Translations under genes and position numbers: made by a program
The notes under the pieces: model-generated
Database searches by the model: none
The model's input: only the letters and a program-made list of their open reading frames with translations
Told to the model about the DNA's origin: nothing
Assembly: GCA_041650315.1 (NCBI GenBank)
Contig: JBAZLJ010000002.1
Span: 65,599 to 129,598, forward strand
Origin: Candidatus Woesearchaeota archaeon
GTDB taxonomy: Archaea; Nanobdellota; Nanobdellia; Woesearchaeales; JAGVYF01
Reading direction: 5' to 3'
DNA: 64,000 nt
Shown: one piece after another, positions 28,306 through 51,984 of the stretch
Numbering within the stretch: position 1 is the first letter of the stretch
How the letters are laid out: every line of letters starts with the position of its first letter

Positions 28306-28569
28306 AAGCTCGTACAGGCTCTTGCTCATATGAACTTCTCATGATACCCCCAACATATCTAAAATTCATGGGGCAAGGCCTTTTTTCTTCTCTTTTTATT
28401 GATTTTTAATTGACTAGAATTAAGTTAAATGTGATTCGAAAAAAAAGCTTATTCTATGATTATCTTATGTTCAGTCTGAGAAACATCTATCTCACAGCTT
28501 TTTGACTTCGCAAAAACCTGGGAAAACACTGAGACATGCGTTCGCTTCGCTCACTTAGTCTCAACAGAA

Positions 28570-28845
28570 TTATTCTATAATAATCTTATGCTCGTTCTGA
28601 GAAACATCTATCTCTTTCAAATCATTGACTACAATATCAGAACCCCTTGGTAGATATTTAACATCGTGATTCTTGAAAACTACGCTCATTACATTATGGA
28701 ATTCCAATGTCTTTGTAGGAACTTCTACAGTCTTATGCGCGTCATTAATCTTGAAGAGCTTAACCTCTACCATATACGGATATTCATCGTTCTCTGGAGA
28801 TTCTTTTCTCCTGCATACGATAATGCTCTTCGCTTTGTATTTCAT
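28570..28845 (-). CDS. hypothetical protein; its last 13 codons are duplicated at 28455-28497
   Basis: ORF. The sequence downstream encodes a second ...IDVSQTEHKIIIE* fragment. Confidence 0.3.
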   Translation of the reverse strand: MKYKAKSIIVCRRKESPENDEYPYMVEVKLFKINDAHKTVEVPTKTLEFHNVMSVVFKNHDVKYLPRGSDIVVNDLKEIDVSQNEHKIIIE

Positions 28846-28898
28846 AGGTGATACAGAAATTGCTGGATTTAAAAATGTTGCGGATTAAAAATTGTGAA

Positions 28899-28913
28899 AA
28901 GCCTCAGGGGAGA
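28899..28913. repeat. 15-bp direct repeat aagcctcaggggaga, identical to the 3' end of tRNA-Thr at 53368-53382; putative distal att site
   Basis: Exact 15-mer match. A chance match of a specific 15-mer in 64 kb is very unlikely. Confidence 0.55.
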
Positions 28914-29912: not shown

Positions 29913-30153
29913 ATATTATCTGGCGTGGTTTTGCATTTACCTGCCGATAGCCATGAGCTACAAATATCTGGTCAGGGATGAGATAACCACACTGCTCGGC
30001 ATCATCGTGATAGCATTGGCAGTAATACCAGTATTCCTTGCAGTCTTCAAAGACAGACCTAGACTGGACTTGAACTATTCAAGACCCGGCGAATTCAATG
30101 TGCCAGCTCCAGTCATGAGGACAGCGATAAAAGTAATGGGGTGGGACAAATGA
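29890..30153 (+). CDS. small two-TM membrane protein
   Basis: ORF in tight overlap with its neighbours. Confidence 0.4.
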   Translation: MKMKAGIKYYLAWFCIYLPIAMSYKYLVRDEITTLLGIIVIALAVIPVFLAVFKDRPRLDLNYSRPGEFNVPAPVMRTAIKVMGWDK

Positions 30154-30485
30154 ACCTGAAAATATTATGGGACACGTTACTGCTCATGATGGTTGTCGGC
30201 ACAGTATTCATGCCCGCCGTCTCCGCAGTGACTTTCACAGGACCGACCGCAAGCGACATCAGCACCTTCAACGACATACTCTCGCCATTGATGAAATTGT
30301 ACAACTTCGTGAAATACGCAGCCACAGTCTTAGCTGTGCTGTATCTCGTATTCGCAGGCATATCTTTCATCATGGCGAGCAATGACCCGAGACAGAGAGA
30401 ATTAACCAAATCAATGGCGAGCTACGTCTTGGTAGGATTGGTAGTAGTCTGGGCTGCGCCGATGATGGTGGAGTATCTGCTGTGA
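30141..30485 (+). CDS. VirB2/TrbC/TedC-like conjugative pilin candidate
   Basis: Signal peptide ending AVSA, then two hydrophobic helices separated by a short charged loop (SNDPRQRELTKS). About 90-aa mature length. Confidence 0.45.
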   Translation: MGQMNLKILWDTLLLMMVVGTVFMPAVSAVTFTGPTASDISTFNDILSPLMKLYNFVKYAATVLAVLYLVFAGISFIMASNDPRQRELTKSMASYVLVGLVVVWAAPMMVEYLL

Positions 30486-31390
30486 GAAAACTTATTTTTC
30501 TCTTATTTTTTGTACTACTCATCATACCATCAGCTTATGCTTCAAGCAACAGCGATTGGTGGGATGTCGTGGACGAGTTCTATGACATCGCAGACTACTT
30601 CATCGAGAAGATTGTCGAGTTCATGTTCGCTTTGATACAAGGTGCGACAAGACCATTCCTATCATTGATTGAAACATTGCTAAAATCCGAAGTATCTATC
30701 ACCCCTTTTCAGAGCCTATGGCGTTCATTGGCGTACGTCGTCAGTATGTTCTACGGCTTGCTTTTCCTTTACGCAGGATTGCAGTTCATCACCTCCGGCA
30801 ATGATCCAGCGAAACGGACAGATGCAAAGACGTGGCTCAAGAATACATTTGTGATGATTGTCCTAGTCCAAGCTTCGTACTATCTTTACCAACTGACAAT
30901 GCAGATATCATCAGCTCTGACAACAGCGATACTGAAAAAGTGCTGGGTAAGCTTTTTCACGATAACCTATGACGTTTTCACTAATCTCAGCATGGAGTAT
31001 ATGTTCATCACGTTGTATATCATAATCCTGCTAGTTACAATCCTATTGTTGGCAATCCGTTACATCTTCGCATCAATCGGCGTAGTCTTTGCCCCGATAG
31101 GAATCTTTCTCAGCTTCATCCCACCATTGCAGAGCTATGGCAAATTGATAATCAACAGCCTAGGAATAATGGCGTTCATCCCATTCGTCGATGCAATCAT
31201 CATCCTCGCATCATCGCAGTTATTATTCACGCCAGTCTTTTCAAGCATGCAGATTCTGGTCAAGATAGTGGCGTTTTTGATAATCGATTTCTCCACAATC
31301 ATGCTCTTCAGATTGGCAGTCACCAAATCCGCATTCGATTCAGTCACAGGCGGAGTCACAAAAGTGATCAAATACGCATCATTGCTCTAA
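30482..31390 (+). CDS. VirB6/TrbL/CedA-like polytopic membrane protein
   Basis: 302 aa with at least 6 TM helices, translationally coupled to the pilin-like gene and the VirB4-like gene. Confidence 0.45.
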   Translation: MRKLIFLLFFVLLIIPSAYASSNSDWWDVVDEFYDIADYFIEKIVEFMFALIQGATRPFLSLIETLLKSEVSITPFQSLWRSLAYVVSMFYGLLFLYAGLQFITSGNDPAKRTDAKTWLKNTFVMIVLVQASYYLYQLTMQISSALTTAILKKCWVSFFTITYDVFTNLSMEYMFITLYIIILLVTILLLAIRYIFASIGVVFAPIGIFLSFIPPLQSYGKLIINSLGIMAFIPFVDAIIILASSQLLFTPVFSSMQILVKIVAFLIIDFSTIMLFRLAVTKSAFDSVTGGVTKVIKYASLL

Positions 31391-31391
31391 T

Positions 31392-34300
31392 ATGTCCTAC
31401 GAAATCCCTGCGGAACTTGAATACAAAGAGATAATCATGTTCGGACTTACATTCATGCAGTTGCTCTACGCAATGGTTTTCCTAGTGCCTATTGCCATCA
31501 TCCTGAAATCCGGCATCGATTACACAATCCAGGCAGTCATCATCGCATTGCTCGTCGGAATCGCTCTCATGTTCATGTTCTTCAATCTCACAGAGAAGCT
31601 CAAGGAGATGTGGCAATACATGAAGCTGAAGACCAAGTACCAAAGATACCTAGAGACTGACCAGAAAGTCGCCGTCCTAAAGATAAAGCCGATTAATTTC
31701 ACGATAAAGACTGACGAGGAGAAGCAAGTCATCATCAAGACGTTCAGGAAATTCCTTAACTCGTTGAACTTTCCGATACAGATACTCATCAAGACAGAGC
31801 CGTTGCTATTGGACAATTATCTGAACCAACTGCATAAGAAATCCTTGAATAAGGAGCTGGTCGCTGGCATGAAGAAACATCTTAGCGAGACTCTGAGTGA
31901 TAAAGTCTTGAACAAGACGTTCTACATAATCATCCCAGAGAAAACCGGATTGGAGAAAAGGCAGTGCATCGAGAAGCTCAAAGACCTCAACCTCAAAGTC
32001 GATGAAGCCAAACTGCCTGCAGAGAAATATTACAAAATCGATATAACGTCGGCAGACTTCAAGATAAAGCAATACCATACGATAATAGCGGTCAGAGGCT
32101 ATCCGAGATTTGTCGAATCCGGATTCCTCGACAAAGTAGTAACTTCGCAGGGCTATTTCGATATAAGCATCCATATCGAGCCGGATTCGATTGAGCATAC
32201 CATGGTCACGCTCAATAAAGAGTTGCAGAAACAGAAAGCCGATCTCTATTCTGCCGAACTCAAAGGCGTAGTATCGCCATCTCTCGAAATCAAGTACAAA
32301 GACACAAAGAGCATCCTTGAGCAGTTGCATAAAGGCGAAGAAAAGCTGTTCAATGTTTCAGTCTATGTCGAATGCAGAGCATCGACCAGAGAAGAACTGA
32401 GAGACCTTGTGGCGAAAATCCAGTCCGAGCTTAATGCGTTAATGATGGATTCCAAGATTCCTACTTATCGGATGATTCAAGGCTTGAAATCAGTCTTGCC
32501 GTCAGGCATTGATGCGTTGAACATCAAGCGAAACATAACAAGCAACGCCCTTTCGGCATTCTTTCCTTTCACATCCCCATTCCTTGAAATAGATGATGAC
32601 GGCATCTGGCTCGGCTTGAATAAGAACAACATTCCGGTAATAAAAGATGTATTCAAGCAATTCAATCCCAATGGTTGTATCTTAGCATCATCCGGCTCAG
32701 GCAAATCATACACCGCTAAACTAATCATAAGCCGTTATATTTTGAACGGGACTAAAGTCATAGTCATAGACCCCCAATGCGAATATAAGCAACTCGTGAA
32801 GCATTTTAACGGGCAATGCGTTGAGATTAGCAGGACTTCTGAGACCGTGATTAATCCATTAGACCTAGTAGGACACGAATATCCAGACAAACGTCTGTCA
32901 TTGATGGGCTTGATTCCAGTCATGTTAGGCGAACTGACGGAATCGCAGAAATCATTGATGGACAAAGCCATAACCATGGCATACCAAAAGAAGGGCATCA
33001 GCATAGATGAAGCCACATGGAGCAATATGTGTCCCATGATGTCCGATGTGCTCGATGCCCTCAAAACAATGGAAAGAGGGGCAAATACCTTTGAGAAAGT
33101 CTCCATTAAGTCTCTGATGAACAGGGTAGAGATGTATGTCAATGGCGTATTCTGTTTCCTCAATAAGCAGACGAAGCTCGATTTCAACAACAATTTCGTA
33201 TGCTTCGATATATCCAAGATGCCTAAATTAGTGCAACCAGTGATGATGTATCTGATTCTGGACTATGTCTACATGAAGATGAAGGCGGACATAAACCGCA
33301 AACTGCTTGTCATCGATGAAGCATGGACGCTTCTAGGCAGAGCAGAGGATTCCAATTACATATTCGAGATAGTCAAGACTTGCAGGAAATTCAATATGGG
33401 GCTTCTCTTAATCAACCAAGAGGTTGAAGGATTATTGACCTCAAAAGCCGGAAAGTCTGTGCTTGCCAATACATCATACACATTCCTGATGAAACAGAAG
33501 CCTGCTGTCATCAAAGATATCCGAGACACGTTCAATCTCAGCCCTGCAGAAAAAGACTATCTCCTGACTGCTTCCATCGGCGAAGGGCTGTTGATAATCG
33601 GCGATGAGCATACTGAGCTTAAAGTGGTCGCATCTGCTGAAGAGCATAAGCTGATTACAACCAATGCGGATGAACTATTGAAGCTCGAAGCAAATGCTAT
33701 GAACCCTGCTTTCAGGAAGGACGTGGAGATCAAGCTGGACTTGTCCAGCGATGTCTACCGGAAAGCGGATTTGAGCGAGGATGATGTGAAGTATTTGGTT
33801 AGGAACGGATATGCTGAAGAGCAATGCAGAGCGATAGAGGCGAAAAGACAGGAAGCATATCTCGTGAAGAAAAAGAGATGCGAAAGTATGCCCCACGTTT
33901 TCTTAGTTTGGGAGATTGCGAATTATCTAAAAAAGTATACTTCTGAAATCAAAACTACATCAACATCTGTGGCAGATATTATTGTCCAAACGCCAAAGGG
34001 CGAATTCGCTATTGAGATTGAAACGGGCTATTTCTTGAAACACAACAAAGCAGAATTATTTGATAAAGTAAAGGCATTGAATGAAAAGTTCGGCTCAAAT
34101 TGGTGCTTTGTTGTGACTGACAATGATATAAGAAAACAATATAGGCGATTAGGGAGAACATATACACGGATGGATTTATCGAGATTAGTGCAAGAAATTC
34201 CCCTCTCACCCCCTCAAATTCTGGCGTTTAAAGCTTTATCCCCCTCAAACTCTGCGAATTCGCCCGCAGGACTTACCATTCATACAACCAACACGGAGGT

Positions 34301-34484
34301 ATCTAAAATGAACGACCAACAACCTAAGAACGATAAAAACGAACCGACTAAAGAATACAACGATCAACCGATTCTCGAAACGCGAATTAGCTTGAGCAAG
34401 GATGGGAAATATGTCATACACAAGACAATCATCACAGACATAAAACCGATTGCATATATGCAAAAAGTACTGGGCTCAGAATGA
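31392..34484 (+). CDS. VirB4/TrbE/CedB-like conjugation ATPase with N-terminal TM anchor and C-terminal extension
   Basis: Walker A ASSGSGKSYTAK and Walker B LLVIDEAWTLL. 1030 aa. Confidence 0.7.
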   Translation: MSYEIPAELEYKEIIMFGLTFMQLLYAMVFLVPIAIILKSGIDYTIQAVIIALLVGIALMFMFFNLTEKLKEMWQYMKLKTKYQRYLETDQKVAVLKIKPINFTIKTDEEKQVIIKTFRKFLNSLNFPIQILIKTEPLLLDNYLNQLHKKSLNKELVAGMKKHLSETLSDKVLNKTFYIIIPEKTGLEKRQCIEKLKDLNLKVDEAKLPAEKYYKIDITSADFKIKQYHTIIAVRGYPRFVESGFLDKVVTSQGYFDISIHIEPDSIEHTMVTLNKELQKQKADLYSAELKGVVSPSLEIKYKDTKSILEQLHKGEEKLFNVSVYVECRASTREELRDLVAKIQSELNALMMDSKIPTYRMIQGLKSVLPSGIDALNIKRNITSNALSAFFPFTSPFLEIDDDGIWLGLNKNNIPVIKDVFKQFNPNGCILASSGSGKSYTAKLIISRYILNGTKVIVIDPQCEYKQLVKHFNGQCVEISRTSETVINPLDLVGHEYPDKRLSLMGLIPVMLGELTESQKSLMDKAITMAYQKKGISIDEATWSNMCPMMSDVLDALKTMERGANTFEKVSIKSLMNRVEMYVNGVFCFLNKQTKLDFNNNFVCFDISKMPKLVQPVMMYLILDYVYMKMKADINRKLLVIDEAWTLLGRAEDSNYIFEIVKTCRKFNMGLLLINQEVEGLLTSKAGKSVLANTSYTFLMKQKPAVIKDIRDTFNLSPAEKDYLLTASIGEGLLIIGDEHTELKVVASAEEHKLITTNADELLKLEANAMNPAFRKDVEIKLDLSSDVYRKADLSEDDVKYLVRNGYAEEQCRAIEAKRQEAYLVKKKRCESMPHVFLVWEIANYLKKYTSEIKTTSTSVADIIVQTPKGEFAIEIETGYFLKHNKAELFDKVKALNEKFGSNWCFVVTDNDIRKQYRRLGRTYTRMDLSRLVQEIPLSPPQILAFKALSPSNSANSPAGLTIHTTNTEVSKMNDQQPKNDKNEPTKEYNDQPILETRISLSKDGKYVIHKTIITDIKPIAYMQKVLGSE

Positions 34485-34543
34485 GCCCACATTATTCTAT
34501 TTTAACATAAAGTATAAATACTCTGATTAAAATTAGGTTAACA

Positions 34544-35716
34544 TTGAAAAAAAGAATTCAAATTTCGGAAATAATGCCGATATTATCTAAAGCGATTAAT
34601 CAAAATAAATTAAGTCCTAATGTCCCTCATTATTATACCAGAATATTTACTTATTTTGATGAAATTGAAATTCCTGAAACATCATTTATGCAGACATTAA
34701 AATCCATATCATCCATCCTTAACGAAATAGATCAACACCACTTTAAAAGTCCAGAAGACTATTTTTTGTATATTATTAGTATTTGTGAACATATTACTTC
34801 AAAGATTTTTCAAAAAAGTATTAATCAAAAGGAGATATATGAAAAATATTCCACTCAATTTAATCAAATCGTAGATTTAATTAAAGAAATATATTCAAAA
34901 TTTGAAGATTCTTTTGCACAATCTCGAACAAATGAATATAATTCTTTCAAGGGGAATAATACTTCTTCCAAAATTGAATTAGAATTTGATTTAACTAGTG
35001 AACTGGACATTAAAAAAGCAATAATCAAAGAATTTGTTCTCCCCTACAAATATGAGATTAAAAAAGATAAAGTAATTAATAGGGGATATGTCCCGATAAT
35101 TTATCAAGGAAAAATAATTTATCAAAGTGAATCCAAATCATTTAGAGGGCACATAATTGAAAATGAAATCACCCCTATGGGATATCCCTTTTATGGAATA
35201 GACATAATTCATCCTAAAAATGAAAATGAGTTTATAGAATTTGTCAATGAATTAATTGCCATATTTAAACATAATATTGAACAGAGAAAGGGATATAAAC
35301 TATTATGGAATGGAACAAAAAGTAAGCCTGAAGAAGAAGTACAAATCTTTTTTGATAATCAAATTATAGAATTAGCCCAAAGAAGAGGCATTGAAGTCTC
35401 TCGAGAAAATGAAACGGGGCGCGGTCCAGTTGATTTTAAGTTTATTGAATCAGTAGAACATAAAGCACATCTTGAAATCAAAAAGGCGTCTAATCCTAAA
35501 TTAATAAAAGGGTTATCTAAACAATTAGTTACTTATTTAAAAGCGGATAAATTAGATATAGGTTTTTATCTAATAATTCAATTTTTTGACAATGAGGATA
35601 AAATTATCAATACGTTTAAACAACAAATTTCAAAATTAAGATTAGATAATAATATAAAGATATTTACTATATTTATTGATGCAAGAAGAAATAAAAAATC
35701 TGCATCAAAATTGTAA
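34544..35716 (+). CDS. hypothetical protein with candidate C-terminal PD-(D/E)xK nuclease motif
   Basis: Very AT-rich. ...ENETGRGPVDFKFIESVEHKAHLEIKKAS gives a D...ExK arrangement. Confidence 0.4.
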   Translation: MKKRIQISEIMPILSKAINQNKLSPNVPHYYTRIFTYFDEIEIPETSFMQTLKSISSILNEIDQHHFKSPEDYFLYIISICEHITSKIFQKSINQKEIYEKYSTQFNQIVDLIKEIYSKFEDSFAQSRTNEYNSFKGNNTSSKIELEFDLTSELDIKKAIIKEFVLPYKYEIKKDKVINRGYVPIIYQGKIIYQSESKSFRGHIIENEITPMGYPFYGIDIIHPKNENEFIEFVNELIAIFKHNIEQRKGYKLLWNGTKSKPEEEVQIFFDNQIIELAQRRGIEVSRENETGRGPVDFKFIESVEHKAHLEIKKASNPKLIKGLSKQLVTYLKADKLDIGFYLIIQFFDNEDKIINTFKQQISKLRLDNNIKIFTIFIDARRNKKSASKL

Positions 35717-35717
35717 A

Positions 35718-36707
35718 ATGGCTGAAAAAATAGTTAATCCCGAAACCAAAGAAATAATTATCAAGTGCAGTAGTGATTTAGAATTAAATAGCTATTCTAA
35801 TTTTTACGATGCATTTGGAGATTTAACTATTACTGAAATAGTTAATAATTTTAATATAGTTAGATATAGTTTATTTGAAAGATATTATTTGTCCGATAAA
35901 AGCTTTAAAGAAACAATTAAAGTGATGAAACAAAATATCCTAAAGCTTCAATCGCAATGGGATACTTTTACACCATTAAAACCTAGAATAATTGATATCG
36001 AAGATTTTAATGCGGGATTTAAATTTACTATTATTAAAAATATTAAAAAGAAAATTAAGGATAAATTAGATAATCTAGAGATATCAAGAAAAGGTACGGA
36101 TTTTGCATGTGTTGTTTATATCTATAAAAAAGAAAATAATAAAGTGGGGATTTTATTTTCGAATTATAATTATAGTAATTCTAAATTACTTGATTATCTC
36201 TCTAAAGAATTGGTTGAAAGGCTTATTTTCGAAAATCTTAGGCCTGAGAAATATAAATTAATTGAATTGGTAGATCGTTTAAATAAAGTAATTGGAATTA
36301 AATTTGACCCTGGGTACTTAGTCCCAAAAAAGATTAAAGATAAATTACAAGAACAAGATAAAATTAGATTAATCTCTAATTCTATAAAATTAGAGAAACA
36401 AGAAATTAGATTATTAGATTTAAAATCATTTGAAGAGTTTAATATTCTTATCTCTGATATTAAGAATAAAAAACGTGATATAGAGCAATTAGAGGGGTAT
36501 TTAGATTTAATTCGAATTAAAATTGAATCTTTGGATAAAGGCACTAAAACAGTAATTACGGTTTGGTCAAATAAATTAAATGTTGAAAGTAAAGGGGAAT
36601 TTGTTTATTTAATGGGTTTTTTAAAACAATTATTTTTAAAACAGAAATCAAATCATAAAAAAGAGATTATACAAAAAACAATTAAATCTAGTCTTATCGC
36701 TCATTAA
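35718..36707 (+). CDS. hypothetical Lys/Asn-rich protein, apparently co-operonic with the preceding gene
   Basis: ORF. Start placed at the ATG two nt after the upstream stop. Confidence 0.35.
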   Translation: MAEKIVNPETKEIIIKCSSDLELNSYSNFYDAFGDLTITEIVNNFNIVRYSLFERYYLSDKSFKETIKVMKQNILKLQSQWDTFTPLKPRIIDIEDFNAGFKFTIIKNIKKKIKDKLDNLEISRKGTDFACVVYIYKKENNKVGILFSNYNYSNSKLLDYLSKELVERLIFENLRPEKYKLIELVDRLNKVIGIKFDPGYLVPKKIKDKLQEQDKIRLISNSIKLEKQEIRLLDLKSFEEFNILISDIKNKKRDIEQLEGYLDLIRIKIESLDKGTKTVITVWSNKLNVESKGEFVYLMGFLKQLFLKQKSNHKKEIIQKTIKSSLIAH

Positions 36708-36932: not shown

Positions 36933-37034
36933 ATGATAGAAAAAGACCATTTTTGCGAATATGAAATAGCTGGAGAACTGATTCTCTGCGGAATATGCGG
37001 TGCAGAGCACCACATTAAGGGTGATGTCCAATGA
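36933..37034 (+). CDS. 33-aa zinc-finger-like peptide (C..C....C..C..HH), translationally coupled to ardA
   Basis: ggaggt ribosome-binding site. Its stop overlaps the ardA ATG (ATGA). Confidence 0.3.
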   Translation: MIEKDHFCEYEIAGELILCGICGAEHHIKGDVQ

Positions 37035-37534
37035 GGATTGCCATCACCGATTTGAAAGATTACAATGAAGCCATTCTCAGATTCGAATGGCTTAATCTCG
37101 AAAACTGCTCAACTGCAGATGAAATCGGATGTTTCATCAACAGATTCCTTGCAAAACGGAGCAGGGAAACCGGTGAACTCCATGAAGAATGGTTCGTAAC
37201 AGATTACGAAGAATTCGTTGATCTCGGTGAGTATCCTTCTATCGAAGAACTTGCCGAAGCAGCCAAACTTAGCAAACTGCATGGCTGGGAAGCGGTTTCA
37301 GCATATTACGGCTATAACCGCTCCTTTGACGGTTTTGATGATGCTTATTCTGGCATATATGAAAGCGAAGAGGATTTCGCCTATGATATAGCTCACGAAT
37401 GCTATAGCGAGAAAGAACTAGGCAAACTTGAGCTGTATATCGATTGGGGGAAGTACGCTAGAGATTTGTTTATTGGCGATTACTTTAGCGAAAAACTTGA
37501 ATCATTCAAAATTGCAGTATTTAGACGAATTTAG
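37031..37534 (+). CDS. ardA: ArdA-family anti-restriction protein
   Basis: 167-aa acidic protein. N-terminal IAITDLKDYNEAILRFEWL, central EWFVTDYEEFVDLGEYPSIEEL and C-terminal YIDWGKYARDLFIGDYF align to the ArdA proteins of conjugative transposons. Confidence 0.7.
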   Translation: MRIAITDLKDYNEAILRFEWLNLENCSTADEIGCFINRFLAKRSRETGELHEEWFVTDYEEFVDLGEYPSIEELAEAAKLSKLHGWEAVSAYYGYNRSFDGFDDAYSGIYESEEDFAYDIAHECYSEKELGKLELYIDWGKYARDLFIGDYFSEKLESFKIAVFRRI

Positions 37535-38007
37535 GGCAATGAATATCCTGCATCAAAATAAGCTTGCATATCTGCAGGAACTCTTTGTTTGATTCTTTTT
37601 GAATCTTGTAATTTACCAATTTTAAATCCGTATTCTATTAAATTCCACCAATATTTATTAGAATTAATTCTAGAAACGGGTCCCCAAGCAGTTGAATCTT
37701 CAGTTAGATCTTTCAAATATTCTGGAACTTTATCTGATTTTTTAAATGTGATTCGTAATTCAGGTCCGAATTTATCTACCGAATCTAATTTTCTATAATC
37801 ATCACTAGAAGCTACATCTTCGCCAGATTTAGATTTATATTTAACTTCAAAGGCATCTTCTGATTTTTGAGGTACTTCTGCCCATAATTGAGTTTTTCTT
37901 TTAGAATTTGCTAAATAACCTACTGATTCAAAAAAAGCCTCATCTTTTTTCTTCCAACCTACTGGTTTTTTTAAACTACCATCCGGATTAAATTCATATA
38001 AACCCAT
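37531..38007 (-). CDS. hypothetical protein, last gene of the methyltransferase/helicase operon
   Basis: ORF; no motif recognised. Confidence 0.35.
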   Translation of the reverse strand: MGLYEFNPDGSLKKPVGWKKKDEAFFESVGYLANSKRKTQLWAEVPQKSEDAFEVKYKSKSGEDVASSDDYRKLDSVDKFGPELRITFKKSDKVPEYLKDLTEDSTAWGPVSRINSNKYWWNLIEYGFKIGKLQDSKRIKQRVPADMQAYFDAGYSLP

Positions 38008-38015
38008 TATTTCAC

Positions 38016-38678
38016 CTATTTAGATAAATATTTAATAAATTCTTCAACTGAATGAACTTCATCATCATCAAAATCAAATGATACCATCTTCTCAATACCG
38101 CCCCTTATTTCGTATTCTTCAGCAATGTAAGTTTTTTTAAGATCTATTTTAATAAAATAAGTTTCTTTTTCTTTATCACAAGTATGGGCTACCCATATAT
38201 CCATTTCAGGATGTTTTTTCATATACTCTATTTTATCCGGTCTTAACCATAATTCCTTACCACAACCGATTTTGCCAGTAACTTCTAAATAAAGAGTCTT
38301 TTTGCCGAATTTCATAATTACATCTGGTCCACCTTTCTCGATTGGATGTTTAAGTATAATTTTAGTGGAATCTGTGCCAAATCCAATATCTTCAAAAGTA
38401 ACACCTTTAATTTTATCTTGAATTAGTGAAAATACTTGTTTTTTTCTTTCTTGTTCTTTTTCCCAAGAATCTTTATATTTTAATTTCCAAACATAATCAA
38501 TAACATCCGAAAGTTTTTTAGTATCTATAACTGAACCCATTTCTAGTTTAATTCCGCTCAAGCGTTCAATATCAGGGGTCCGAGTGATATATGTTGCCTT
38601 AAAGAATTTCCCATCTACATAGATACTAATTCTATCTTTATTGCCCGTCTGAATTCTTATATCAGTTATTTTGCTCAT
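38016..38678 (-). CDS. hypothetical protein (weak PD-ExK-like pattern GPDVIM...LYLEVTGK)
   Basis: ORF overlapping the methyltransferase stop by 17 nt. Confidence 0.35.
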   Translation of the reverse strand: MSKITDIRIQTGNKDRISIYVDGKFFKATYITRTPDIERLSGIKLEMGSVIDTKKLSDVIDYVWKLKYKDSWEKEQERKKQVFSLIQDKIKGVTFEDIGFGTDSTKIILKHPIEKGGPDVIMKFGKKTLYLEVTGKIGCGKELWLRPDKIEYMKKHPEMDIWVAHTCDKEKETYFIKIDLKKTYIAEEYEIRGGIEKMVSFDFDDDEVHSVEEFIKYLSK

Positions 38679-41610
38679 TATTCCAATTTTCTATAAGATT
38701 GATATCATTAGATTCTAGATTATATAATTTGTAAATCTGTGAATTTAATTTATTTTCGAGAACTAATTTTTCTGTAGATTCTTTAGATTTTATAGCCAAT
38801 ATTTCATCTACCAACTTGGAGAATTTCTTTTGATCATTCAAATCAAGTGCAGGGATAGGTATTTTCATTAAATAGATTCCATCTAAATGAATTGTAAGAT
38901 TTGCTGAATTTAATATATATCTATAAAAGAAATAACTAACTACTCTCGAATTTAATATTGCTAAGATATACCTAGGGTCAAATTTTAATTCATCAAAGGA
39001 AACAATCACGCACCCACCCGAAGGCACATTTTTATCAGTATTGATTATAACACCCCTTGGATAAAGAGTTCCAAATTGAGTTATAACTACTAATTGTTTA
39101 TGCTCTAAGTAAGGGTTAGTATTGGTCTTATCTTTTGCAGAATATGCATCATAATCAAGATAAAATCGTTTTATATTCTTACCTCCTAAATAATAATATT
39201 TACCATTAGGTGTAATTTCCTTATCTAAATCAATGCCTCTATCACCATCAAGAATATTTGCTTTAAATTTGCTTATCTTTGAATAAATATCATCATAATA
39301 AAGAATCCAATACCCTTTTTCAACAGCCTCATTTATCGGCAAGAAACAGGTTTTATCTTCTCTCATAGAGTAGCATTTTATTTGATAATTATTTTTAATG
39401 CATTTCTGATAAAATATGATTATCATTTCTAAAGTAACGCCTTGGAATTGACCATATGCATCAGTAATTTCACGCAAAACTGAATTAGATTGGATGAAAT
39501 TTCGGATATAGTAATATCCCTCAGACCTAGAGATTGAATGCGGTACAATCATTGAAAATTGCCCATTTTTAGCTAATAAAAAATAAGTTCTTTCTAGAAA
39601 CATGGTCGCTAGATTGAATTGATTCTTAAATCTAGATTTGGTATTATGTGTTATAGATAAAATCTTGTATATCTCCTTATATTTCTCATTTAAATCATAA
39701 CAGACATAAGGGGGATTTCCAATAACTACATCAAATCCACCATTCAGTATAATATGCCCAAAATCGATTCTCCAATGGAATACTTGAAGCTCTGAAAATT
39801 CTTTATCAGATATTGGGGGATTCTTTCGAATAGCTTTATACTTTGCAGTTTGTTCCTTATGCGCTTTGCCATAATCAATGCCCGCTAATTTAAAATTAAT
39901 ATATTCTAAAAATGAGGGGGTTACTGCATGATAAATCGATTTTCTAATTGTCTCGATAATACTCCTTAGGTTTTCTGCTTTCAAACCATGTGTTTTTCTA
40001 TAAATTTTATACAAAATATAATATGCCTCAATATAATCATTTAATTTATAGGTTTTCAACAATTCTCTTGCTTTTTTAAGATCAGTACCTTCGCTATTTT
40101 CAGAAAAAGCGATTAAACCAGTGAATATCCCATCAACCTTCTCGGTAAGTGGCGTATTCATTGGCATTTGAACTAATTTCTCATCGAGCCAACCTACCAA
40201 ACTATTTCCCACTTTAAGATTATATTCAATATTCGGCAATGCTTTTATTTCATGTTTATTATCTTCATAATCTGAGATTAACCATAGCCAGAGTCTTAAT
40301 TTAGAAATTTCAATTGCACCAGCTAAAAAATCAACGCCATATATATTTTCAGTGATTATATCTAATTTTAATTCATAGAAATTTTTCTTTTCTTTTAATT
40401 CATATAATAGTCTTCTTTTAAGTCCCAATAATACTTCAGATGCTTTAATTAAAAATGCCCCTGAGCCACAGGCGGGATCTATTACTTTGATTTCATCAAG
40501 TATTTTTAGAGCATCTTTCATATCTTTTTTATTTTTGGATTCTATTAATTCCTCAAAAGAATGGAATTTGCCTAGCTTATCAAATAGACATGGAAGTATA
40601 GTATTATTAGAGATATAATCAGTAATAGATTCAGGCGTATAATATACCCCCTTTTTCTTTCTTTCAGTTATCTTTTTGACCGCATTTTCAGCTTCTTTTT
40701 CAAAACCTTCACTTTCCCATTCAACAACGCTTCTTTCATAGACATGACCTAATATTTCTGGAGTTAATATTTTTTCTTCATTCTCCTCTATAGCTTTAAC
40801 ATCTTCAATTATCCAATGGTAACTATTCAAAAATTCAAATATTTCTCCCCATTGTTCAGAATCTAATTTTATATCCAAATCTTGTTCTAACACATCAGGT
40901 CTGAATAAACCACCATTCAAATAAGGCACAACTATCTGATAATCGCCTATTTCAAGTAGGTTCTTCTCTTGAGAATTAAATAGATGGAACAATTTTTTAA
41001 GATTCTGTAAAAAGTTACCCTTTTTTAATAATATCTTAGTAAATAAACTTTCACCAGAAATTTTACCCCCATCATTAAATTTTATAATTCCCTTGTGGCA
41101 TAAGAAATATATAAAGAAAAACCTATCAAATATTTTCTGAGCAATTAGATATTTATGTATTGGTTCAACATCATTTTTTATATTTTGAACAAGAAGATTT
41201 CTTTTAAGCTTAAAAGCTTCATAAAATAATCCCGAGATATCTTTTGATTGGAATAAATAGTCTAAATTAGTGATATTCTTTAGTTTATCTACTTTTGAAG
41301 GATTATTTTTTGTTCGTTCAGAATAAATGAAATGTTTTGTTTCGCCAAAGCTTCTAAAAAATATTAGTTTAGTATCTATGCAGATTATACAATAACTTAA
41401 ACCTCTATCCATTAAGAAATGATCTTTGATCTCTTTAATCTTTTCTTCATCGTATACTTCATATATGACTAAAAGCTTTCGCTTATCTATTCTAAAGAAG
41501 ATTCCTTCTTTGTATTCTTCATCAGAATATTCTTTTTCTTCATTAAACCCTTTTTCTTTTAAGAATTCTATTAATCTTTTCTTTCCACCCAATATCTCTT
41601 GAACTTCCAT
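38662..41610 (-). CDS. gamma-class N6-adenine DNA methyltransferase with N-terminal domain and C-terminal target-recognition domain (Eco57I/PglX/LlaGI-methyltransferase-like)
   Basis: Motif I VIDPACGSGAFL and motif IV GNPPY. 982 aa. Confidence 0.75.
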   Translation of the reverse strand: MEVQEILGGKKRLIEFLKEKGFNEEKEYSDEEYKEGIFFRIDKRKLLVIYEVYDEEKIKEIKDHFLMDRGLSYCIICIDTKLIFFRSFGETKHFIYSERTKNNPSKVDKLKNITNLDYLFQSKDISGLFYEAFKLKRNLLVQNIKNDVEPIHKYLIAQKIFDRFFFIYFLCHKGIIKFNDGGKISGESLFTKILLKKGNFLQNLKKLFHLFNSQEKNLLEIGDYQIVVPYLNGGLFRPDVLEQDLDIKLDSEQWGEIFEFLNSYHWIIEDVKAIEENEEKILTPEILGHVYERSVVEWESEGFEKEAENAVKKITERKKKGVYYTPESITDYISNNTILPCLFDKLGKFHSFEELIESKNKKDMKDALKILDEIKVIDPACGSGAFLIKASEVLLGLKRRLLYELKEKKNFYELKLDIITENIYGVDFLAGAIEISKLRLWLWLISDYEDNKHEIKALPNIEYNLKVGNSLVGWLDEKLVQMPMNTPLTEKVDGIFTGLIAFSENSEGTDLKKARELLKTYKLNDYIEAYYILYKIYRKTHGLKAENLRSIIETIRKSIYHAVTPSFLEYINFKLAGIDYGKAHKEQTAKYKAIRKNPPISDKEFSELQVFHWRIDFGHIILNGGFDVVIGNPPYVCYDLNEKYKEIYKILSITHNTKSRFKNQFNLATMFLERTYFLLAKNGQFSMIVPHSISRSEGYYYIRNFIQSNSVLREITDAYGQFQGVTLEMIIIFYQKCIKNNYQIKCYSMREDKTCFLPINEAVEKGYWILYYDDIYSKISKFKANILDGDRGIDLDKEITPNGKYYYLGGKNIKRFYLDYDAYSAKDKTNTNPYLEHKQLVVITQFGTLYPRGVIINTDKNVPSGGCVIVSFDELKFDPRYILAILNSRVVSYFFYRYILNSANLTIHLDGIYLMKIPIPALDLNDQKKFSKLVDEILAIKSKESTEKLVLENKLNSQIYKLYNLESNDINLIENWNNEQNN

Positions 41611-44600
41611 TTATTTCTCAATAAAGCTAATTGCAAATAATGATTCTTTGTTAGTATTTAACTTTTGCTGAACCCCTAATTTTGTGAAACTATCTTTAAG
41701 TTCATTAATCCATTGTTTAACTTTAGTATTGGTTATTTCTTCTTTTAATTCAACTTTTATTTTTTTAACCACTTTTTCAGTTGTACTCCCGCAATTATGT
41801 CTAGTCAATTCAAGAGTATCTTCTAATTTTGAAATTTCAGAATACAATTCAACAAGTTTTTCAGAAGTAATATAATCTAAAATATTATTTATTAATTTAT
41901 CAACATTATCATTGAAATAATGCATCCTTAGATGTTCTTTTCTTTTATTACTTAAATACTCTTCAAATGAATTAAGTTCGTGTTTAAAAATTCCTTCGAA
42001 ATCAATTCTTCTACTTAGTTCATCAGGATTTTGATTAGACAAAATTTCCTCGTTATATGAATCAGTATTCTTATAGACAATACTTAATCCCTTTTTACCT
42101 TCGAAACTAGTATAATTCTTACCTGAGGGGATATTGACTTTAGTTAGATCTTCCTTCTTAAGATTATACTTTTTAATTGCTTTTTGCAAAAATATTAAGA
42201 TGGGTTTTGAATAATCTAAAGCAATTTCTAAATCTTTAAAATTGCCTTCTCTTAAATTACCCCTTATTTTTTGAAGTACTTCTATGTACATCCTTTTGTC
42301 TTTAGCTCTTCTTTCCGATAAAAGCTCTTTTTCTGCTTCAAACCATATCCTATATTCAACTCCTACAAATCGAATTATATCCTTAATCCTTAATTCCATT
42401 GTTTCAACTAGTTTTAGTTCAATATCTAAATCATCATCCGGTCTAAAATTCAGAATCTCAATTTCTTTTGGAGCATCAAGTCTTGTTGCTCTACCTATTC
42501 TCTGTATTATTCTTACGGGATTATAGGGGATATCAAAATTTATTACTAAATCCGCACCGCTTATATTGAATCCTTCGGAGAGTGTATCTGTAGTTATTAA
42601 TATTCGAAGTTTATCTTTAGATTCATTAAATTTCTCGATGATTGTTTGTTTATTTTCAGTATTAGAATCAACAAATCTTATCTCATCGGGATGAATTGAA
42701 TTTTTAAAGTATTCTTTAATCGCTTTCAATGTATCTTTATATTCGGTAAATATCAGTATCTTTTTACTTTTATTAGAATTGAATACTTGACTTAATTGAT
42801 TTATTTTTTGGTCATTTTTGAATAATACTCCTGATTTTTCCTTTAAGAAGGGCTCTAATTTTTTTATTTGTTCATTTATCTTAGCTACATCAATTTTTAA
42901 TTCATTGAGTATTTTTAGATTACCAGATCCTTTACCTTCTTTGATTTTATCGATTACCTCTGAAAGCTTGTTTTTATAATCTAAATCAAAGTTGATATCT
43001 ATATCATTAAAATCCGAACCAAAATTAACATCAATCTCATCTTCATATTCTTCTTCCTCTAGATATTTAGTGTTTTGTTTCTCAATGGCAGTTAATATCA
43101 TAGTGCTTTTCTTGGATAATCTCTTAAGAGTAAGGTAGTAAGAACTGATATCACTTTCAAATCTTTTATATAATATCCATTTGAAAAACCCGCCTAAACG
43201 GACACCTTTTTCAGGGTCTAATATTCTTAAATGGGCGGCAGATAAGCTTGTGATAAAGTCTACAATCCCATTCACAATGTCTTTGTATCGTAAATCTAGC
43301 TCATATTTTATTTCTTCAATCTCGGGATCCTTTATTTTAGTAATATCAACATTTGAAAATGTCTTTAATTCGTCTATATAATCGGAAGAAGTTTTGATTG
43401 TCTCCCTCGTTGATTTGACAAACATCTCTCGTTCAATTTCTTCCTGTACCTTAGACAGATTCTCTTTTTCAGAATCAGTTAATTCTTCATATTCTTTATT
43501 TTTGAATAAGTTAATCAAATCACCAAGTTCTCTAACCAAAGTATCAAAGAGCAAGTTTTGCCCATGCCTATAGAATAATTTAACCAAATCCAAAAGATTA
43601 TCTAAGCTGGTATTAATTGGTGTTGCAGTTAAGAATAATATCTTAGAATTACCATTTTCATCGATTATCTTCTTTAGATTTCTAGTTCTATAAGCATCAG
43701 GATTCCTATAGTTATGAGCTTCATCGATTATAATTAACCCATAATTCTTTGCATATTTCTCAATTTTAAACATCTCGGGTCTTTTTTGCAAATCCCCCAT
43801 AGAAACCAGATTAACCTTATCATAAATCTCAAATTCTTTCAAATATCTAGGCCATTGGTCTTCATTATGGGCTAAACCCGCTGGAACTAGAATCATTACT
43901 TTTTTATCATTATTCAAGAAATATTTGGCTATTTGAGATGCAACATATGATTTCCCTAATCCTACTGATGAAGTTAAGAAACAACCCCTATACCCCTTAC
44001 TATTAAAATTATTTAACACCCTAATGAAATCTACATATTGGAATCGAAGTAATTTTGATTTTTTAAATTCCTCAAATAAATAATCAGCGTTTAGATACTT
44101 AATCAAAATCTTCAAAAATTCTTTCGGTTCAATATACATGAATGTATTTTCTAATTCTTCTTTAAACTTTGAATTTTCAATTGCCTCTACAATTGCATCA
44201 GCAACCTTCAGTTTTTCAAAATCTTCTGTTCCTTTCTTCCAAAGACTTTCAAACCATAATTCAACATCTTCTAAATCCTTAGGTTCAGTAATAATGGTGT
44301 TCAGCTCAGTATTTCCGATTAACCCACTAGGAGTCAAATTAGAAGAACCAATTACTCCCGCATTATACTTTTGAGATAAATTCGATGTGGAAATATCCTT
44401 TAAAAAAAGATATGCTTTACTATGCAATCTTTCAGGATTTTTTTCATCACCAAAATAAACCCTTACTTTAAGTGTCTTATATTCTTTGATTAATTGATAA
44501 AATAATTTTATCGCAGGTTTAGTTTGTTCATTTATTTGAAGTTCATTAAATTTCTCTTTGAAAGCTTTGATCAGCATATCTTTAGTAGGCTTTGTAGTTT

Positions 44601-44808
44601 CATAACCCATTAAAATCTTAATTTCTTTAAGATCTTTAAGAGAATTAATAATCTCAACTAAACCTTCAATATAGAAATAACCTACTGCACATTTGAAACC
44701 TTCTGAATCTTGAGCAATAGTTTTGAGAACTTCCTTCATATTAAGAGGATTTACTTGTTTATTATCAATTATTTTCCCATATCTTAATAGATTCTCAAAA
44801 TCAGTCAT
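41611..44808 (-). CDS. fusion of PLD-family (Nuc/BfiI-like) nuclease domain and SNF2/SF2 helicase
   Basis: N-terminal HKD-type motif LHSKAYLF...GSSNLT. Helicase motifs I GLGKS, II IIIDEAHN, III LTATP, VI QRIGRATR. 1065 aa. Confidence 0.7.
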   Translation of the reverse strand: MTDFENLLRYGKIIDNKQVNPLNMKEVLKTIAQDSEGFKCAVGYFYIEGLVEIINSLKDLKEIKILMGYETTKPTKDMLIKAFKEKFNELQINEQTKPAIKLFYQLIKEYKTLKVRVYFGDEKNPERLHSKAYLFLKDISTSNLSQKYNAGVIGSSNLTPSGLIGNTELNTIITEPKDLEDVELWFESLWKKGTEDFEKLKVADAIVEAIENSKFKEELENTFMYIEPKEFLKILIKYLNADYLFEEFKKSKLLRFQYVDFIRVLNNFNSKGYRGCFLTSSVGLGKSYVASQIAKYFLNNDKKVMILVPAGLAHNEDQWPRYLKEFEIYDKVNLVSMGDLQKRPEMFKIEKYAKNYGLIIIDEAHNYRNPDAYRTRNLKKIIDENGNSKILFLTATPINTSLDNLLDLVKLFYRHGQNLLFDTLVRELGDLINLFKNKEYEELTDSEKENLSKVQEEIEREMFVKSTRETIKTSSDYIDELKTFSNVDITKIKDPEIEEIKYELDLRYKDIVNGIVDFITSLSAAHLRILDPEKGVRLGGFFKWILYKRFESDISSYYLTLKRLSKKSTMILTAIEKQNTKYLEEEEYEDEIDVNFGSDFNDIDINFDLDYKNKLSEVIDKIKEGKGSGNLKILNELKIDVAKINEQIKKLEPFLKEKSGVLFKNDQKINQLSQVFNSNKSKKILIFTEYKDTLKAIKEYFKNSIHPDEIRFVDSNTENKQTIIEKFNESKDKLRILITTDTLSEGFNISGADLVINFDIPYNPVRIIQRIGRATRLDAPKEIEILNFRPDDDLDIELKLVETMELRIKDIIRFVGVEYRIWFEAEKELLSERRAKDKRMYIEVLQKIRGNLREGNFKDLEIALDYSKPILIFLQKAIKKYNLKKEDLTKVNIPSGKNYTSFEGKKGLSIVYKNTDSYNEEILSNQNPDELSRRIDFEGIFKHELNSFEEYLSNKRKEHLRMHYFNDNVDKLINNILDYITSEKLVELYSEISKLEDTLELTRHNCGSTTEKVVKKIKVELKEEITNTKVKQWINELKDSFTKLGVQQKLNTNKESLFAISFIEK

Positions 44809-44885: not shown

Positions 44886-45314
44886 TTAAAACTCATCCTT
44901 TAATCTTTTAATCAGTTCCGCCCAATCCTTATACTCCACAACCTCATCCGCAGCAGCCTTCAGGAATGCGGATTCTTTGCCTGATTCGCACATAGCGACA
45001 ACACGAAGCCCTAATGCCTTGGCATAGCCCATCTCGAAATAGACACCATTGGCTTTCTCAGTGATATCCGCTAAAATCATATCGCAATCTTTAAGTCCCG
45101 CAGTAGCTCCTTCAATCACTTCAGGAAGCGAAGTCTGGACTGCGCCCCACTTCTGCACATCCCTAAAGAAGATGAATGTAGAGTGTCCAGCAGATTCTAA
45201 AGCATCGCTAAGCTCAGTCAATTTCTTCTTCAATATTGTAGTATCCGCATCCTTAAACTTGTACGCTATGTAGATTTTCATTCTTTTGACCTCCATAAAA
45301 TCGTTTATATGCAT
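44886..45314 (-). CDS. nucleoside 2-deoxyribosyltransferase-like (SLOG-fold) protein
   Basis: MKIYIAYKF... and GVYFEMGYAKALGLRVV resemble the NDT active-site region (catalytic Glu in F-E-x-G-Y-A). Confidence 0.45.
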   Translation of the reverse strand: MHINDFMEVKRMKIYIAYKFKDADTTILKKKLTELSDALESAGHSTFIFFRDVQKWGAVQTSLPEVIEGATAGLKDCDMILADITEKANGVYFEMGYAKALGLRVVAMCESGKESAFLKAAADEVVEYKDWAELIKRLKDEF

Positions 45315-46578
45315 TCTGCACTAATCTGACCAATTCAGGCAATTCTATATCAGATAAGCTTGCTTTATTGCTCAATTGGTATTTGATGAACCTATACAAC
45401 TCTTTCTCAGTCTCTGGTATAGTATCGTGTATATGTGAATATCTGTCTAACTCCTTATATCCCTTGGCATTAAGCTCATTGTATAAAGGTGTGCCTGGGA
45501 AAGCTCTGATGACTGAAAAGCAGACTATGTCTGGCTTGATCTCTTCAGCGAACTGCAATGTCTCCTCGATTTCCTGCAAAGTCTCTGTAGGCATACCGAA
45601 CATGAAATAAGCCTTTGTCCTGATTCCATACTTCCTGCAAACTGCGATAGCCTTGCGAGAATCTTCAAGAGTAATGCCCTTATTCATCAATTTCAAAACC
45701 CTAGAACTTCCTGACTCCAAACCGAAAGAAATCTTGTAACAGCCATTTTTAGCCATCAAATCAATTGTATTTTCATTGAACCTAGCGATAACATCTGCCC
45801 TAGACAGAATCCTCCATTTCACAACCAATTTGCGCCTATTCAACTCATGGATGAATGTAAGCACTCTTTCTTCAGTATGCGCAAAATTGTTATCTATGAA
45901 ATGGAAGTCATGAATCCCGCTAGAGACAATATGCTCAATCTCATCGACAATATTCTTGATACTGCGTTCCCGCACAACAGAGCCGGTCGGTTTGGAAGCT
46001 GAACAAAATACGCAGTTATATGGGCAACCACGTGAGCCCAGAATGACCGCAGAATATTTTTCATTAACAAATAAACTTCTATCAATGAAAGGTAAAGAAT
46101 CCAATTCCATAATCAAATGCCTATCAGGGTTATGCACTATCCCAGAATCCGAAAGATAGCTTACGCCATCGACATCTCTGCCATGTGCGATAAGTTCTTT
46201 CAAAGTATCTTCGCCTTCGCCACGGACAAGAGCATACGCATTGGTTTCACGCAATACTTTTTCAGGGAATAAAGTGGCATGAATCCCACCAACAATGATT
46301 TTGATATCATCAAGTTCAGCAATAATTCCTTTAATCAGTTCGTAAGTCGGACTGAGTATAGTGAAACAAGCATAATCAGGCTTGAACGATTTAACTGAAG
46401 AAACAATCTCCGCTGGAGACAAGCCTAAAGCTTCGCCATCAATTAATTTGATAGTATGCCCCGCATTCTGTAATATAGTCGCCATGTACCCTAGACCGAT
46501 TGGCGGCACTGTGTCGTATTCTTTTTTCTTATCTAACGCATAGTCTCTCAATGGAGAGCTCACAAAGACAATTCTCAT
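45253..46578 (-). CDS. B12-binding-domain radical SAM enzyme
   Basis: N-terminal cobalamin-binding-like Rossmann domain plus CPYNCVFC (Cx3Cx2C). Confidence 0.7.
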   Translation of the reverse strand: MRIVFVSSPLRDYALDKKKEYDTVPPIGLGYMATILQNAGHTIKLIDGEALGLSPAEIVSSVKSFKPDYACFTILSPTYELIKGIIAELDDIKIIVGGIHATLFPEKVLRETNAYALVRGEGEDTLKELIAHGRDVDGVSYLSDSGIVHNPDRHLIMELDSLPFIDRSLFVNEKYSAVILGSRGCPYNCVFCSASKPTGSVVRERSIKNIVDEIEHIVSSGIHDFHFIDNNFAHTEERVLTFIHELNRRKLVVKWRILSRADVIARFNENTIDLMAKNGCYKISFGLESGSSRVLKLMNKGITLEDSRKAIAVCRKYGIRTKAYFMFGMPTETLQEIEETLQFAEEIKPDIVCFSVIRAFPGTPLYNELNAKGYKELDRYSHIHDTIPETEKELYRFIKYQLSNKASLSDIELPELVRLVQNAYKRFYGGQKNENLHSVQV

Positions 46579-49653: not shown

Positions 49654-49766
49654 TTAAAATCCCTTTCTATGTTTAAGTTAAGCGTCTATTTCTAAAATAT
49701 ATAGCAGAAATTGCCCTAATATCAATTGATTACTCTTCGGATTGGATATTAGATAGTGTTTGTTAT

Positions 49767-51354: not shown

Positions 51355-51471
51355 ATATGAAACGTGGATAATCGTCTTTAAAAAAGCTTGTTTTTTACAT
51401 TCATGCACCCCCATAAAGCCCCCCACAAAGCCCCGTCCTATGTTTAAGTCAAGCGTCTATTTCTATAATTC

Positions 51472-51802: not shown

Positions 51803-51984
51803 GGCGACATTATTTTTTTAAGCTGAGGATGACTCTATCTGAAAAAGAAGAATTATGCGAAATAGCTAAAGACAATGGATTTGATACAGTTAGTTCTTAT
51901 TTAAGATGGGCAATTATGAATAATCTTCCTAAAGATATCCAAGAGATAAAAAATATTCTGCAAAAAAGAGAAGAAAAAAACTAA
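51799..51984 (+). CDS. ribbon-helix-helix (CopG-like) protein 3
   Basis: MTLSEKEELCEIAKDNGFDTVSSYLRWAI. Confidence 0.45.
   Translation: MRRHYFFKLRMTLSEKEELCEIAKDNGFDTVSSYLRWAIMNNLPKDIQEIKNILQKREEKN

Follow-up and report, generated by a model that had tools for sequence, protein, structure and literature searches.

Which process is served by two abutting, very AT-rich genes that follow a VirB4-type ATPase gene in an archaeal genome? The genes, here called A and B, lie at positions 34544–36707 of the window, a 64,000-nucleotide stretch of a Candidatus Woesearchaeota archaeon assembly (GCA_041650315.1, contig JBAZLJ010000002.1, positions 65,599 to 129,598 of the forward strand), in whose coordinates positions are given below. 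An original prediction, made from the DNA letters alone, had taken the two genes for a nuclease and its partner in an abortive-infection or restriction-like system within a defence island. Our analysis upholds the nuclease and the pairing and leads us, tentatively, to a different setting: A and B may form a DNA-processing module serving a relaxase-less archaeal type IV secretion system (T4SS) on an integrated element. On this reading the nuclease domain of the pair in the window would be a replacement, of a type found elsewhere in defence-like settings.

We began from the gene calls and the composition of the locus. At the local composition, a stop-free frame of 390 or 329 codons would arise by chance with a probability of about 1e-16 to 1e-17; open frames of this length are so improbable that both genes must be real, in agreement with the 390 and about 330 residues predicted originally. 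Gene A spans 34544..35716 on the plus strand and encodes 390 residues from a TTG, as in the open reading frame (ORF) listing, or 380 from an ATG at 34574. Public calls for a protein identical to A differ in the same way (NCBI, 390 residues; JGI, 380 residues from ATG 34574), and the homolog alignment favours a start upstream of 34574. For gene B, on the same strand, the alignment favours the ATG at 35718 (329 residues to 36707, the JGI call) over the upstream in-frame TTG at 35676 (343 residues, the ORF listing) and ATG at 35679 (342 residues, the NCBI call). Proteins identical to A and B are also deposited in an NCBI Candidatus Woesearchaeota archaeon metagenome-assembled genome (MAG; MFA5142172/3). 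The TAA stop of A (35714–35716) is separated by 1 nt from the ATG of B. The genes thus abut in an operon layout; the translational coupling described earlier would go beyond what this layout shows.

The guanine plus cytosine (GC) content of 34544–36707 is 0.248, compared with 0.379 ± 0.046 (mean and standard deviation) for 2164-bp stretches of the window. This is close to the lowest value of any such stretch (minimum 0.247 at 34501; 0.08% of sliding windows are as low). The sharp drop at about 34.5 kb that had first been noticed is confirmed in 100-bp bins (0.38 to 0.22), and the right edge, at 36.7–36.8 kb, rises from 0.18 to 0.46. A terminator-like hairpin coincides with the left GC boundary, and a candidate TATA box lies ~26 nt upstream of TTG 34544 (both in the table below); the latter, read from the letters, suggests that the pair has its own promoter.

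To what families do the products belong? The statement that neither had a recognisable family is true of B; A is a member of PF28130 (DUF8371), which a protein identical to it (P0001) carries in precomputed Pfam annotation, and its C-terminal region matches PHROG 30194 (function unknown; E 1e-20). Neither A nor B had a match in local Pfam, NCBIfam and PADLOC scans; the local Pfam copy is older than the DUF8371 family. A database search yielded 131 homologs of A, all aligned only over its last ~165 residues, and a hidden Markov model (HMM) built from 119 other DUF8371 members scored A at 190 bits over residues 211–380 (380-residue numbering). The D-x(13)-E-x-K arrangement pointed out earlier is correct (D297, E311 and K313, within the segment ENETGRGPVDFKFIESVEHKAHLEIKKAS), although 74 residues follow this segment, which had been placed at the end of the protein. 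Ten positions are invariant in an alignment of 120 sequences: E253, Q257, E278, G282, G284, D287, E301, K303, Q317 and Y321 in the 380-residue numbering, to which 10 is added for the 390-residue form (E263, D297, E311, K313, Q327 and Y331).

An AlphaFold2 model of A built with the homolog alignment has a predicted local distance difference test (pLDDT) score mostly above 90 for residues 210–380, with an αβββαβ core. Its elements run in the order helix 253–270, strands 274–276, 288–291 and 297–304, helix 310–324 and strand 329–336, and the domain overall reads helix, three strands, helix, strand, helix, strand. The acidic residue in helix 1, the aspartate on strand 2 and the ExK on strand 3 occupy the positions expected of a PD-(D/E)xK nuclease. 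The best fold matches in PDB and BFVD, all weak, were SfsA, XPF, Mus81, NucS and Mrr-type or other restriction endonucleases, and PDB sequence searches with A, B and the C-terminal domain of the relatives of A described below returned nothing significant. On the model, then, the PD-(D/E)xK fold of A is well supported by motif and topology and weakly by structure search. In the helix after the ExK lies the invariant QxxxY motif (Q317 and Y321), which is typical of the RecB/Cas4 branch of these nucleases. We found no cysteine cluster of the Cas4 iron–sulfur type in the domain, and the PADLOC and Pfam Cas4 models miss A; a weak Cas4_II match (E 0.005) arose only for one other DUF8371 member (P0074). 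Together, these data identify the C-terminal domain of A, with its E-D-ExK-QxxxY signature, as a predicted Mg-dependent nuclease of the RecB/Cas4-like PD-(D/E)xK subgroup, and so bear out the earlier nuclease call.

Outside this domain, the relatives of the pair are few. B matched only itself in a word-indexed search. An exhaustive phmmer search of 1.84 billion representative proteins recovered three relatives, P0122 (E 4.5e-16), P0123 (4e-7) and P0124 (8e-5), which are 322–341 residues long, can be aligned with B from end to end and share invariant KFDP, EK and DLK motifs. A word-indexed search with the B-family profile and scans of genomes, metagenomes and loci returned only members and contigs already known. 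The N-terminal domain of A, of which AlphaFold2 left residues 131–207 unmodelled, matches the first ~190 residues of 339–345-residue neighbours of all three B homologs at 23–29% identity (E 5e-17 in a single pairwise comparison; 1e-14 to 3e-11 in a local database search). The last ~115 residues of these A-like proteins carry E…GDSxxD…(I/V)E(T/V)K…GQ in the register of the A motif. That they are DUF8371 domains could not be shown: HMM scores were near 0 and the hhalign probability was 0.4%, although the G..D..ExK..Q register coincides. The family is thus defined by the N-terminal domain of A together with B, and the nuclease module of the window's lineage is either extremely diverged or exchanged. 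A 290-residue gene downstream of P0122 was considered as a further member and rejected, having no similarity to A and no conservation in other loci.

We next asked which genes the pair keeps beside it. A-type and B-type genes are adjacent in all four known lineages, which agrees with the original view of them as a functional pair. They are in tandem in the window; each B relative has its A-like gene 34–53 bp away and divergently transcribed, and the spacers are AT-rich palindromes with TATA-like elements that would fit bidirectional archaeal promoters. In three of these lineages the pair stands next to VirB4: directly after it in the window, between VirB6 and VirB4 in one element found in four samples (L012–L015), and after VirB4, beyond a 68-residue ORF, in a Methanosarcinales MAG (L016). 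All-against-all BLAST of the window (26–52 kb) with the related loci showed that the three T4SS loci have only pilin, VirB6, VirB4, A and B in common. Pairwise identities between loci are 45–47% for VirB4, 35–38% for VirB6, 35–43% for pilin, 23–34% for the N-terminal domain of A and 19–37% for B; values this low point to long co-inheritance and not to recent cargo. The remaining genes differ, with ArdA and a restriction–modification (RM)-like block in the window, a type I RM system in L016, and DUF2779 and a SNF2 helicase in L012. Defence-type genes occur near the pair in the window and in L016, but the constant neighbour is VirB4.

These observations bear on the proposed abortive-infection or restriction-like system. 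PADLOC-DB v2 at E ≤ 0.01 gave no match for A, B, two of the three A-like proteins (L008 and L012) or two of the three B homologs (P0122 and P0123), and in three of four lineages the pair lies beside VirB4 in a minimal T4SS cluster with differing cargo. The original prediction had itself named a homolog neighbourhood of conjugation genes as the finding that would count against it; because the homologs do lie with conjugation genes, except in one lineage (L008/L009), the defence-island reading is not supported by its own test. A role for A and B in genetic conflict keeps a real, if minority, share of our expectations, given that this type of nuclease domain occurs in bacterial defence-like settings and that ArdA and an RM-like block are neighbours here.

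From the genes themselves, the nuclease fold and signature, the pairing and the adjacency to VirB4, we propose the following model, which we rate as the likeliest reading, though at less than even odds. A and B would accompany a minimal archaeal secretion or conjugation apparatus made up of pilin, a VirB6-like protein and VirB4. The helical N-terminal domain of A, which is specific to the small A/B family, may link A to B, to the transfer machine or to both; B may direct or restrain the nuclease; and A may cut or resect DNA in connection with T4SS-mediated transfer, the contact between A and B, the DNA substrate and the tie to transfer all being parts of this proposal. Archaeal conjugative elements have no recognisable relaxases (PMC9905601, PMC6563490), and the pair could be the functional counterpart of the relaxase that they lack. 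Family scans recognised no relaxase or coupling ATPase among the larger ORFs of the candidate element in the window. The placement of ArdA ~320 bp downstream of A/B recalls the relaxase–orf19–ardA order of Tn916. A bolder form of the model, about which we are rather doubtful, makes A/B the missing relaxase-equivalent module of relaxase-less archaeal conjugative elements of the MPF-FATA type. The nuclease, unlike MOBC relaxases in sequence, would be tethered through its N-terminal domain and B to pilin–VirB6–VirB4 and would there produce the DNA that passes from one archaeon to another; DPANN (Woesearchaeota) and Methanosarcinales may be among the hosts. Literature searches found no description of DUF8370 (a domain that precedes DUF8371 in bacterial proteins) or DUF8371, no work on Methanoperedens conjugation or VirB4 and, in the papers retrieved and read, no comparable archaeal T4SS accessory pair. 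The catalytic superfamily and the named Pfam family are known; the combination of this N-terminal domain, the partner B and persistent T4SS adjacency has, on these searches, not been described before.

Several findings weigh against a role in transfer. The GC content of the cassette (0.25, compared with 0.43 in the T4SS genes) and the terminator-like hairpin after VirB4 suggest that A/B may have been acquired separately, and the pair evolves faster than VirB4. The window A has a DUF8371-type nuclease domain, whereas in its three relatives the D-ExK domain is shorter and cannot be recognised as DUF8371; effector swapping of this kind is more typical of conflict systems. In the fourth lineage (L008/L009) uvrB and uvrA stand on either side of the pair, a Fic gene is its neighbour, and the contigs, of ~15 kb, carry no T4SS, so that co-occurrence with pilin–VirB6–VirB4, where the pair is among five shared genes, stands at three lineages of four; the L008 island could, speculatively, be a mobilisable remnant. 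The sample is very small, with only these four lineages, and the T4SS loci in three of them are homologous to one another and do not count as independent associations. The AlphaFold2 model of B is poor (pLDDT 59.8; predicted template modelling score 0.38); START- and KA1-like Foldseek matches to it were disregarded on that ground. A is not a member of MOBC, a bacterial relaxase family to which we return below, having no PF13814 (Replic_Relax) match and an hhalign probability of 0.1–0.2% against the pTEF1 MOBC relaxase, itself a confirmed Replic_Relax protein. A conserved nuclease-like motif at the C terminus of VirB4 could itself supply nuclease activity.

The settings of DUF8371 outside this family also count against a dedicated transfer function. 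In its common, 476-residue bacterial form the domain stands behind DUF8370 (PF28123), which matches the PADLOC candidate PDC-M36A (E 1e-33; the model matches P0009 and P0016, not A). Some homologs have it fused to an AAA_22 ATPase, some loci have it beside nSTAND1 NTPases, and plasmids carry it as a hypothetical gene standing alone, surrounded by integrases, XRE regulators, RelE/ParE systems and transposases; we did not find it in T4SS operons in the plasmid neighbourhoods inspected. In Bacillus and Paenibacillus it follows a short N-terminal region. This distribution is that of a portable effector nuclease. DUF8371 genes overlap or adjoin large nSTAND1/TPR NTPase genes at L004 6001–7698 (895 residues, upstream) and at L006 6001–7131 (1567 residues, downstream, Bacillus velezensis), and these may be Avs-like sensor–effector pairs. 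A 324-residue gene downstream of a Cohnella DUF8370–DUF8371 protein was tested as a B homolog and is not one.

Such company raises the main alternative, close to the original prediction: that A/B is an element-borne conflict module for defence, entry exclusion or competition between elements, in which B would act as sensor or restraint and nuclease A would destroy DNA arriving from phages, plasmids or rival elements. Variable N-terminal domains and defence-like partners elsewhere (nSTAND1, AAA_22, PDC-M36A, and plasmid accessory regions by toxin–antitoxin systems), exchange of the nuclease domain between lineages, fast evolution of the pair, its own transcription unit and foreign composition would all suit this idea, as would the L008 copy in a small island with Fic and without a T4SS, and the neighbours in the window (ArdA, a type IIG-like methyltransferase with an HKD–SNF2 helicase, and a PDC-M51A-like radical SAM protein). 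However, A, B and those of their relatives that were scanned match none of the defence models in PADLOC or Pfam, and the pair sits inside or directly beside the T4SS operon in three of four lineages. Defence cargo normally varies among related conjugative elements, whereas here the same pair persists across VirB4 proteins as divergent as stated above while the other cargo is all different. Nor did we find relatives in phage or viral collections: scans of viral contigs with A, B and VirB4 profiles and tblastn of A against phages gave nothing, and plasmids searched by tblastn with B, P0122 and the L012 A-like protein were equally without a match. Overall, we judge a conflict module to be somewhat unlikely.

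The gene arrangement and the plasmid settings are also relevant to a second alternative, an addiction module of the toxin–antitoxin type in which toxin A is neutralised by B and the integrated element is thereby stabilised. Two abutting genes with conserved pairing on a mobile element are what such a module would look like, a Fic gene stands beside the L008 copy, and plasmid DUF8371 genes lie near RelE/ParE systems. Against this, A and B are far larger than typical type II toxin–antitoxin components, show no similarity to known antitoxins or DNA-binding domains, and are divergently transcribed in three lineages, not arranged as one autoregulated operon. Many DUF8371 proteins are moreover solitary, so its toxicity as such would be too low to call for a partner of its own. 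We therefore regard addiction as improbable.

Is the module part of a mobile element? The T4SS genes and A/B of the window lie on a candidate integrated element of ~24.5 kb (~28898–53441), bounded by a tRNA-Thr gene that a tyrosine integrase gene adjoins. A 15-nt core, AAGCCTCAGGGGAGA, of the tRNA-Thr 3′ end is repeated at 28898–28913, and a degenerate third copy lies at 53294–53313. On this element A/B and ArdA share a strand, with the pair ~320 bp upstream of ArdA, and this order prompts a third alternative: that the pair has an anti-defence or establishment function in a leading region and is expressed early in the recipient, like ArdA, destroying or processing host defence components or host DNA so that the element can establish itself. 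The promoter-like signal and the persistent association with transfer genes would agree with it. Yet ArdA is not beside the pair in related loci, neither protein resembles any known anti-defence protein, and the term leading region is itself conjecture about where oriT (the origin of transfer) lies and in which direction transfer runs; of the alternatives we find this one the hardest to credit.

The element holds several other genes. A small cysteine-rich ORF at 36933–37034 on the plus strand (MIEKDHFCEYEIAGELILCGICGAEHHIKGDVQ) has a stop codon that overlaps the ArdA start codon (ATGA) and may encode a zinc-ribbon protein co-translated with ArdA. A second low-GC block (0.26–0.30) at 37531–44808 on the minus strand contains a 158-residue ORF, a 220-residue ORF with a weak RecX_N-like N terminus and a D..ExK-like motif (GGPDVIM…LYLEVTGK), a 982-residue Eco57I/MmeI-type (type IIG-like) methyltransferase with a TaqI_C domain, and a 1065-residue PLD(HKD)+SNF2 helicase (PADLOC C3a139 ‘HKD+Snf2’, E 1.5e-42); judged from these matches, the block looks like a restriction-like defence system. 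Also on the minus strand, at 44886–46578, two genes overlap, one for a nucleoside 2-deoxyribosyltransferase-like protein and the other for a B12-binding radical SAM protein, of which the second matches the PADLOC defence candidate PDC-M51A (E 9e-20).

The VirB4 of the window has a C-terminal extension (residues ~800–930, nucleotides ~33790–34180) that is conserved in the L012 and L016 proteins and contains the motif H835…D862-I-I…A-I-E875-x-E877-T…K883, whose order resembles a restriction-endonuclease-like core. The extension has no Pfam match and a weak PDB profile match to 4qbo ‘Nuclease’ (E 0.067), and PLSDB contained neither a close relative of this VirB4 nor one that spans the extension. 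The last ~60 residues of the protein correspond to a separate ORF of 62–68 residues in L012.

Table. Coordinates of the A/B genes' domains and signals, and of other features of the window
Feature	Position	Strand	Details
Hairpin TGGGCTCA-gaa-TGAGCCCA	34471..34489	+	Perfect, 8 bp; across the VirB4 stop codon, T-rich sequence after; terminator-like
Candidate archaeal TATA box TATAAATA	34513..34520	+	Read from sequence
N-terminal domain of A	34544..35143	+	~200 residues; mostly helical, pLDDT 60–77
DUF8371 (PF28130) domain of A, predicted PD-(D/E)xK nuclease fold	35201..35713	+	Last ~170 residues; αβββαβαβ, pLDDT above 90
Active-site segment of A	35405..35491	+	Residues 288–316 of the 390-residue form
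Gene B product	35718..36707	+	α/β; starts 1 nt past the A stop; no known family
Pilin, TrbC/VirB2-like (TrbC/T4SS_pilin)	30141..30485	+	Family match; context of A/B
VirB6/TrbL_3-like membrane protein	30482..31390	+	Family match; context of A/B
VirB4 ATPase, CD1110-like	31392..34484	+	1030 residues; PrgI-like N-terminal membrane segment, conserved C-terminal extension
ArdA antirestriction protein	37031..37534	+	Downstream of A/B
Tyrosine integrase	51981–53228	-	Adjoins tRNA-Thr
tRNA-Thr	53369–53441		3′ end holds the 15-nt core
LAGLIDADG_3 homing-endonuclease-like ORF	53580–54191	-	E 1.7e-13; immediately past tRNA-Thr
Direct repeats	28449–28493 / 28570–28614		45 nt, 89% identity, 121 bp apart
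Direct repeats	49656–49698 / 51427–51469		43 nt, 86% identity, 1771 bp apart; flank a 328-residue ORF at 50440–51426

How DNA is prepared for transfer in archaeal conjugative elements and in Ced/Ted-like systems is an open question, and A/B offers a concrete candidate that can be tested through the active-site residues D297, E311 and K313 and through the partner protein. If defence or exclusion turns out to be its function instead, the pair would constitute a new two-gene system and give a first lead to what DUF8371, a nuclease family both widespread and uncharacterised, does. The related locus with T4SS and pair in the Methanosarcinales MAG (L016/L017) places a similar transfer apparatus in DPANN-labelled and methanogen-order genomes, and related transfer machinery in a Woesearchaeota-labelled and a Methanosarcinales MAG is relevant to the exchange of genes between DPANN archaea and methanogens.

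How does the module compare with systems already known? The closest proteins are the bacterial DUF8370–DUF8371 proteins (~476 residues), which share the DUF8371 domain with A at 31–45% identity over ~165 residues and have identical E, D, ExK and QxxxY residues. A lacks DUF8370, carrying only PF28130, and has in its place the ~200-residue N-terminal domain, which only the three archaeal relatives share; the genes of the bacterial proteins mostly stand alone in accessory regions, without a B-type partner and not beside T4SS genes. In architecture A also resembles Shedu (SduA) and similar single-protein defence nucleases, which combine a variable N-terminal domain with a C-terminal PD-(D/E)xK domain: a lineage-specific N-terminal domain precedes the nuclease, and the modules are exchangeable. 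Unlike these, A matches no Shedu/DUF4263 model or other PADLOC or Pfam defence model, and it has a partner gene and a T4SS neighbourhood.

For the proposed role of A in transfer, precedent comes from the MOBC relaxases (TraX of pAD1 and MobC of CloDF13; Pfam Replic_Relax), which are restriction-endonuclease-like, prepare DNA for conjugation and have their genes alongside those of the T4SS (PMC6499999, citing Francia et al. 2013). A differs from them in its RecB/Cas4-like QxxxY signature, and any nicking by A at an oriT would be putative. Archaeal Ced/Ted DNA-import systems and conjugative elements with MPF-FATA-type T4SS likewise make do with pilin, VirB6-like and VirB4-like proteins and lack a recognisable relaxase, and DNA processing has been proposed to be the work of other nucleases such as HerA–NurA (PMC9905601, PMC6563490, PMC11868833). 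Whereas these systems have no described pair of the A/B type, the T4SS described here lies with such a pair on a candidate integrated element, whose tyrosine integrase gene adjoins a tRNA gene, and its VirB4 is closest to the Firmicutes CD1110 type.

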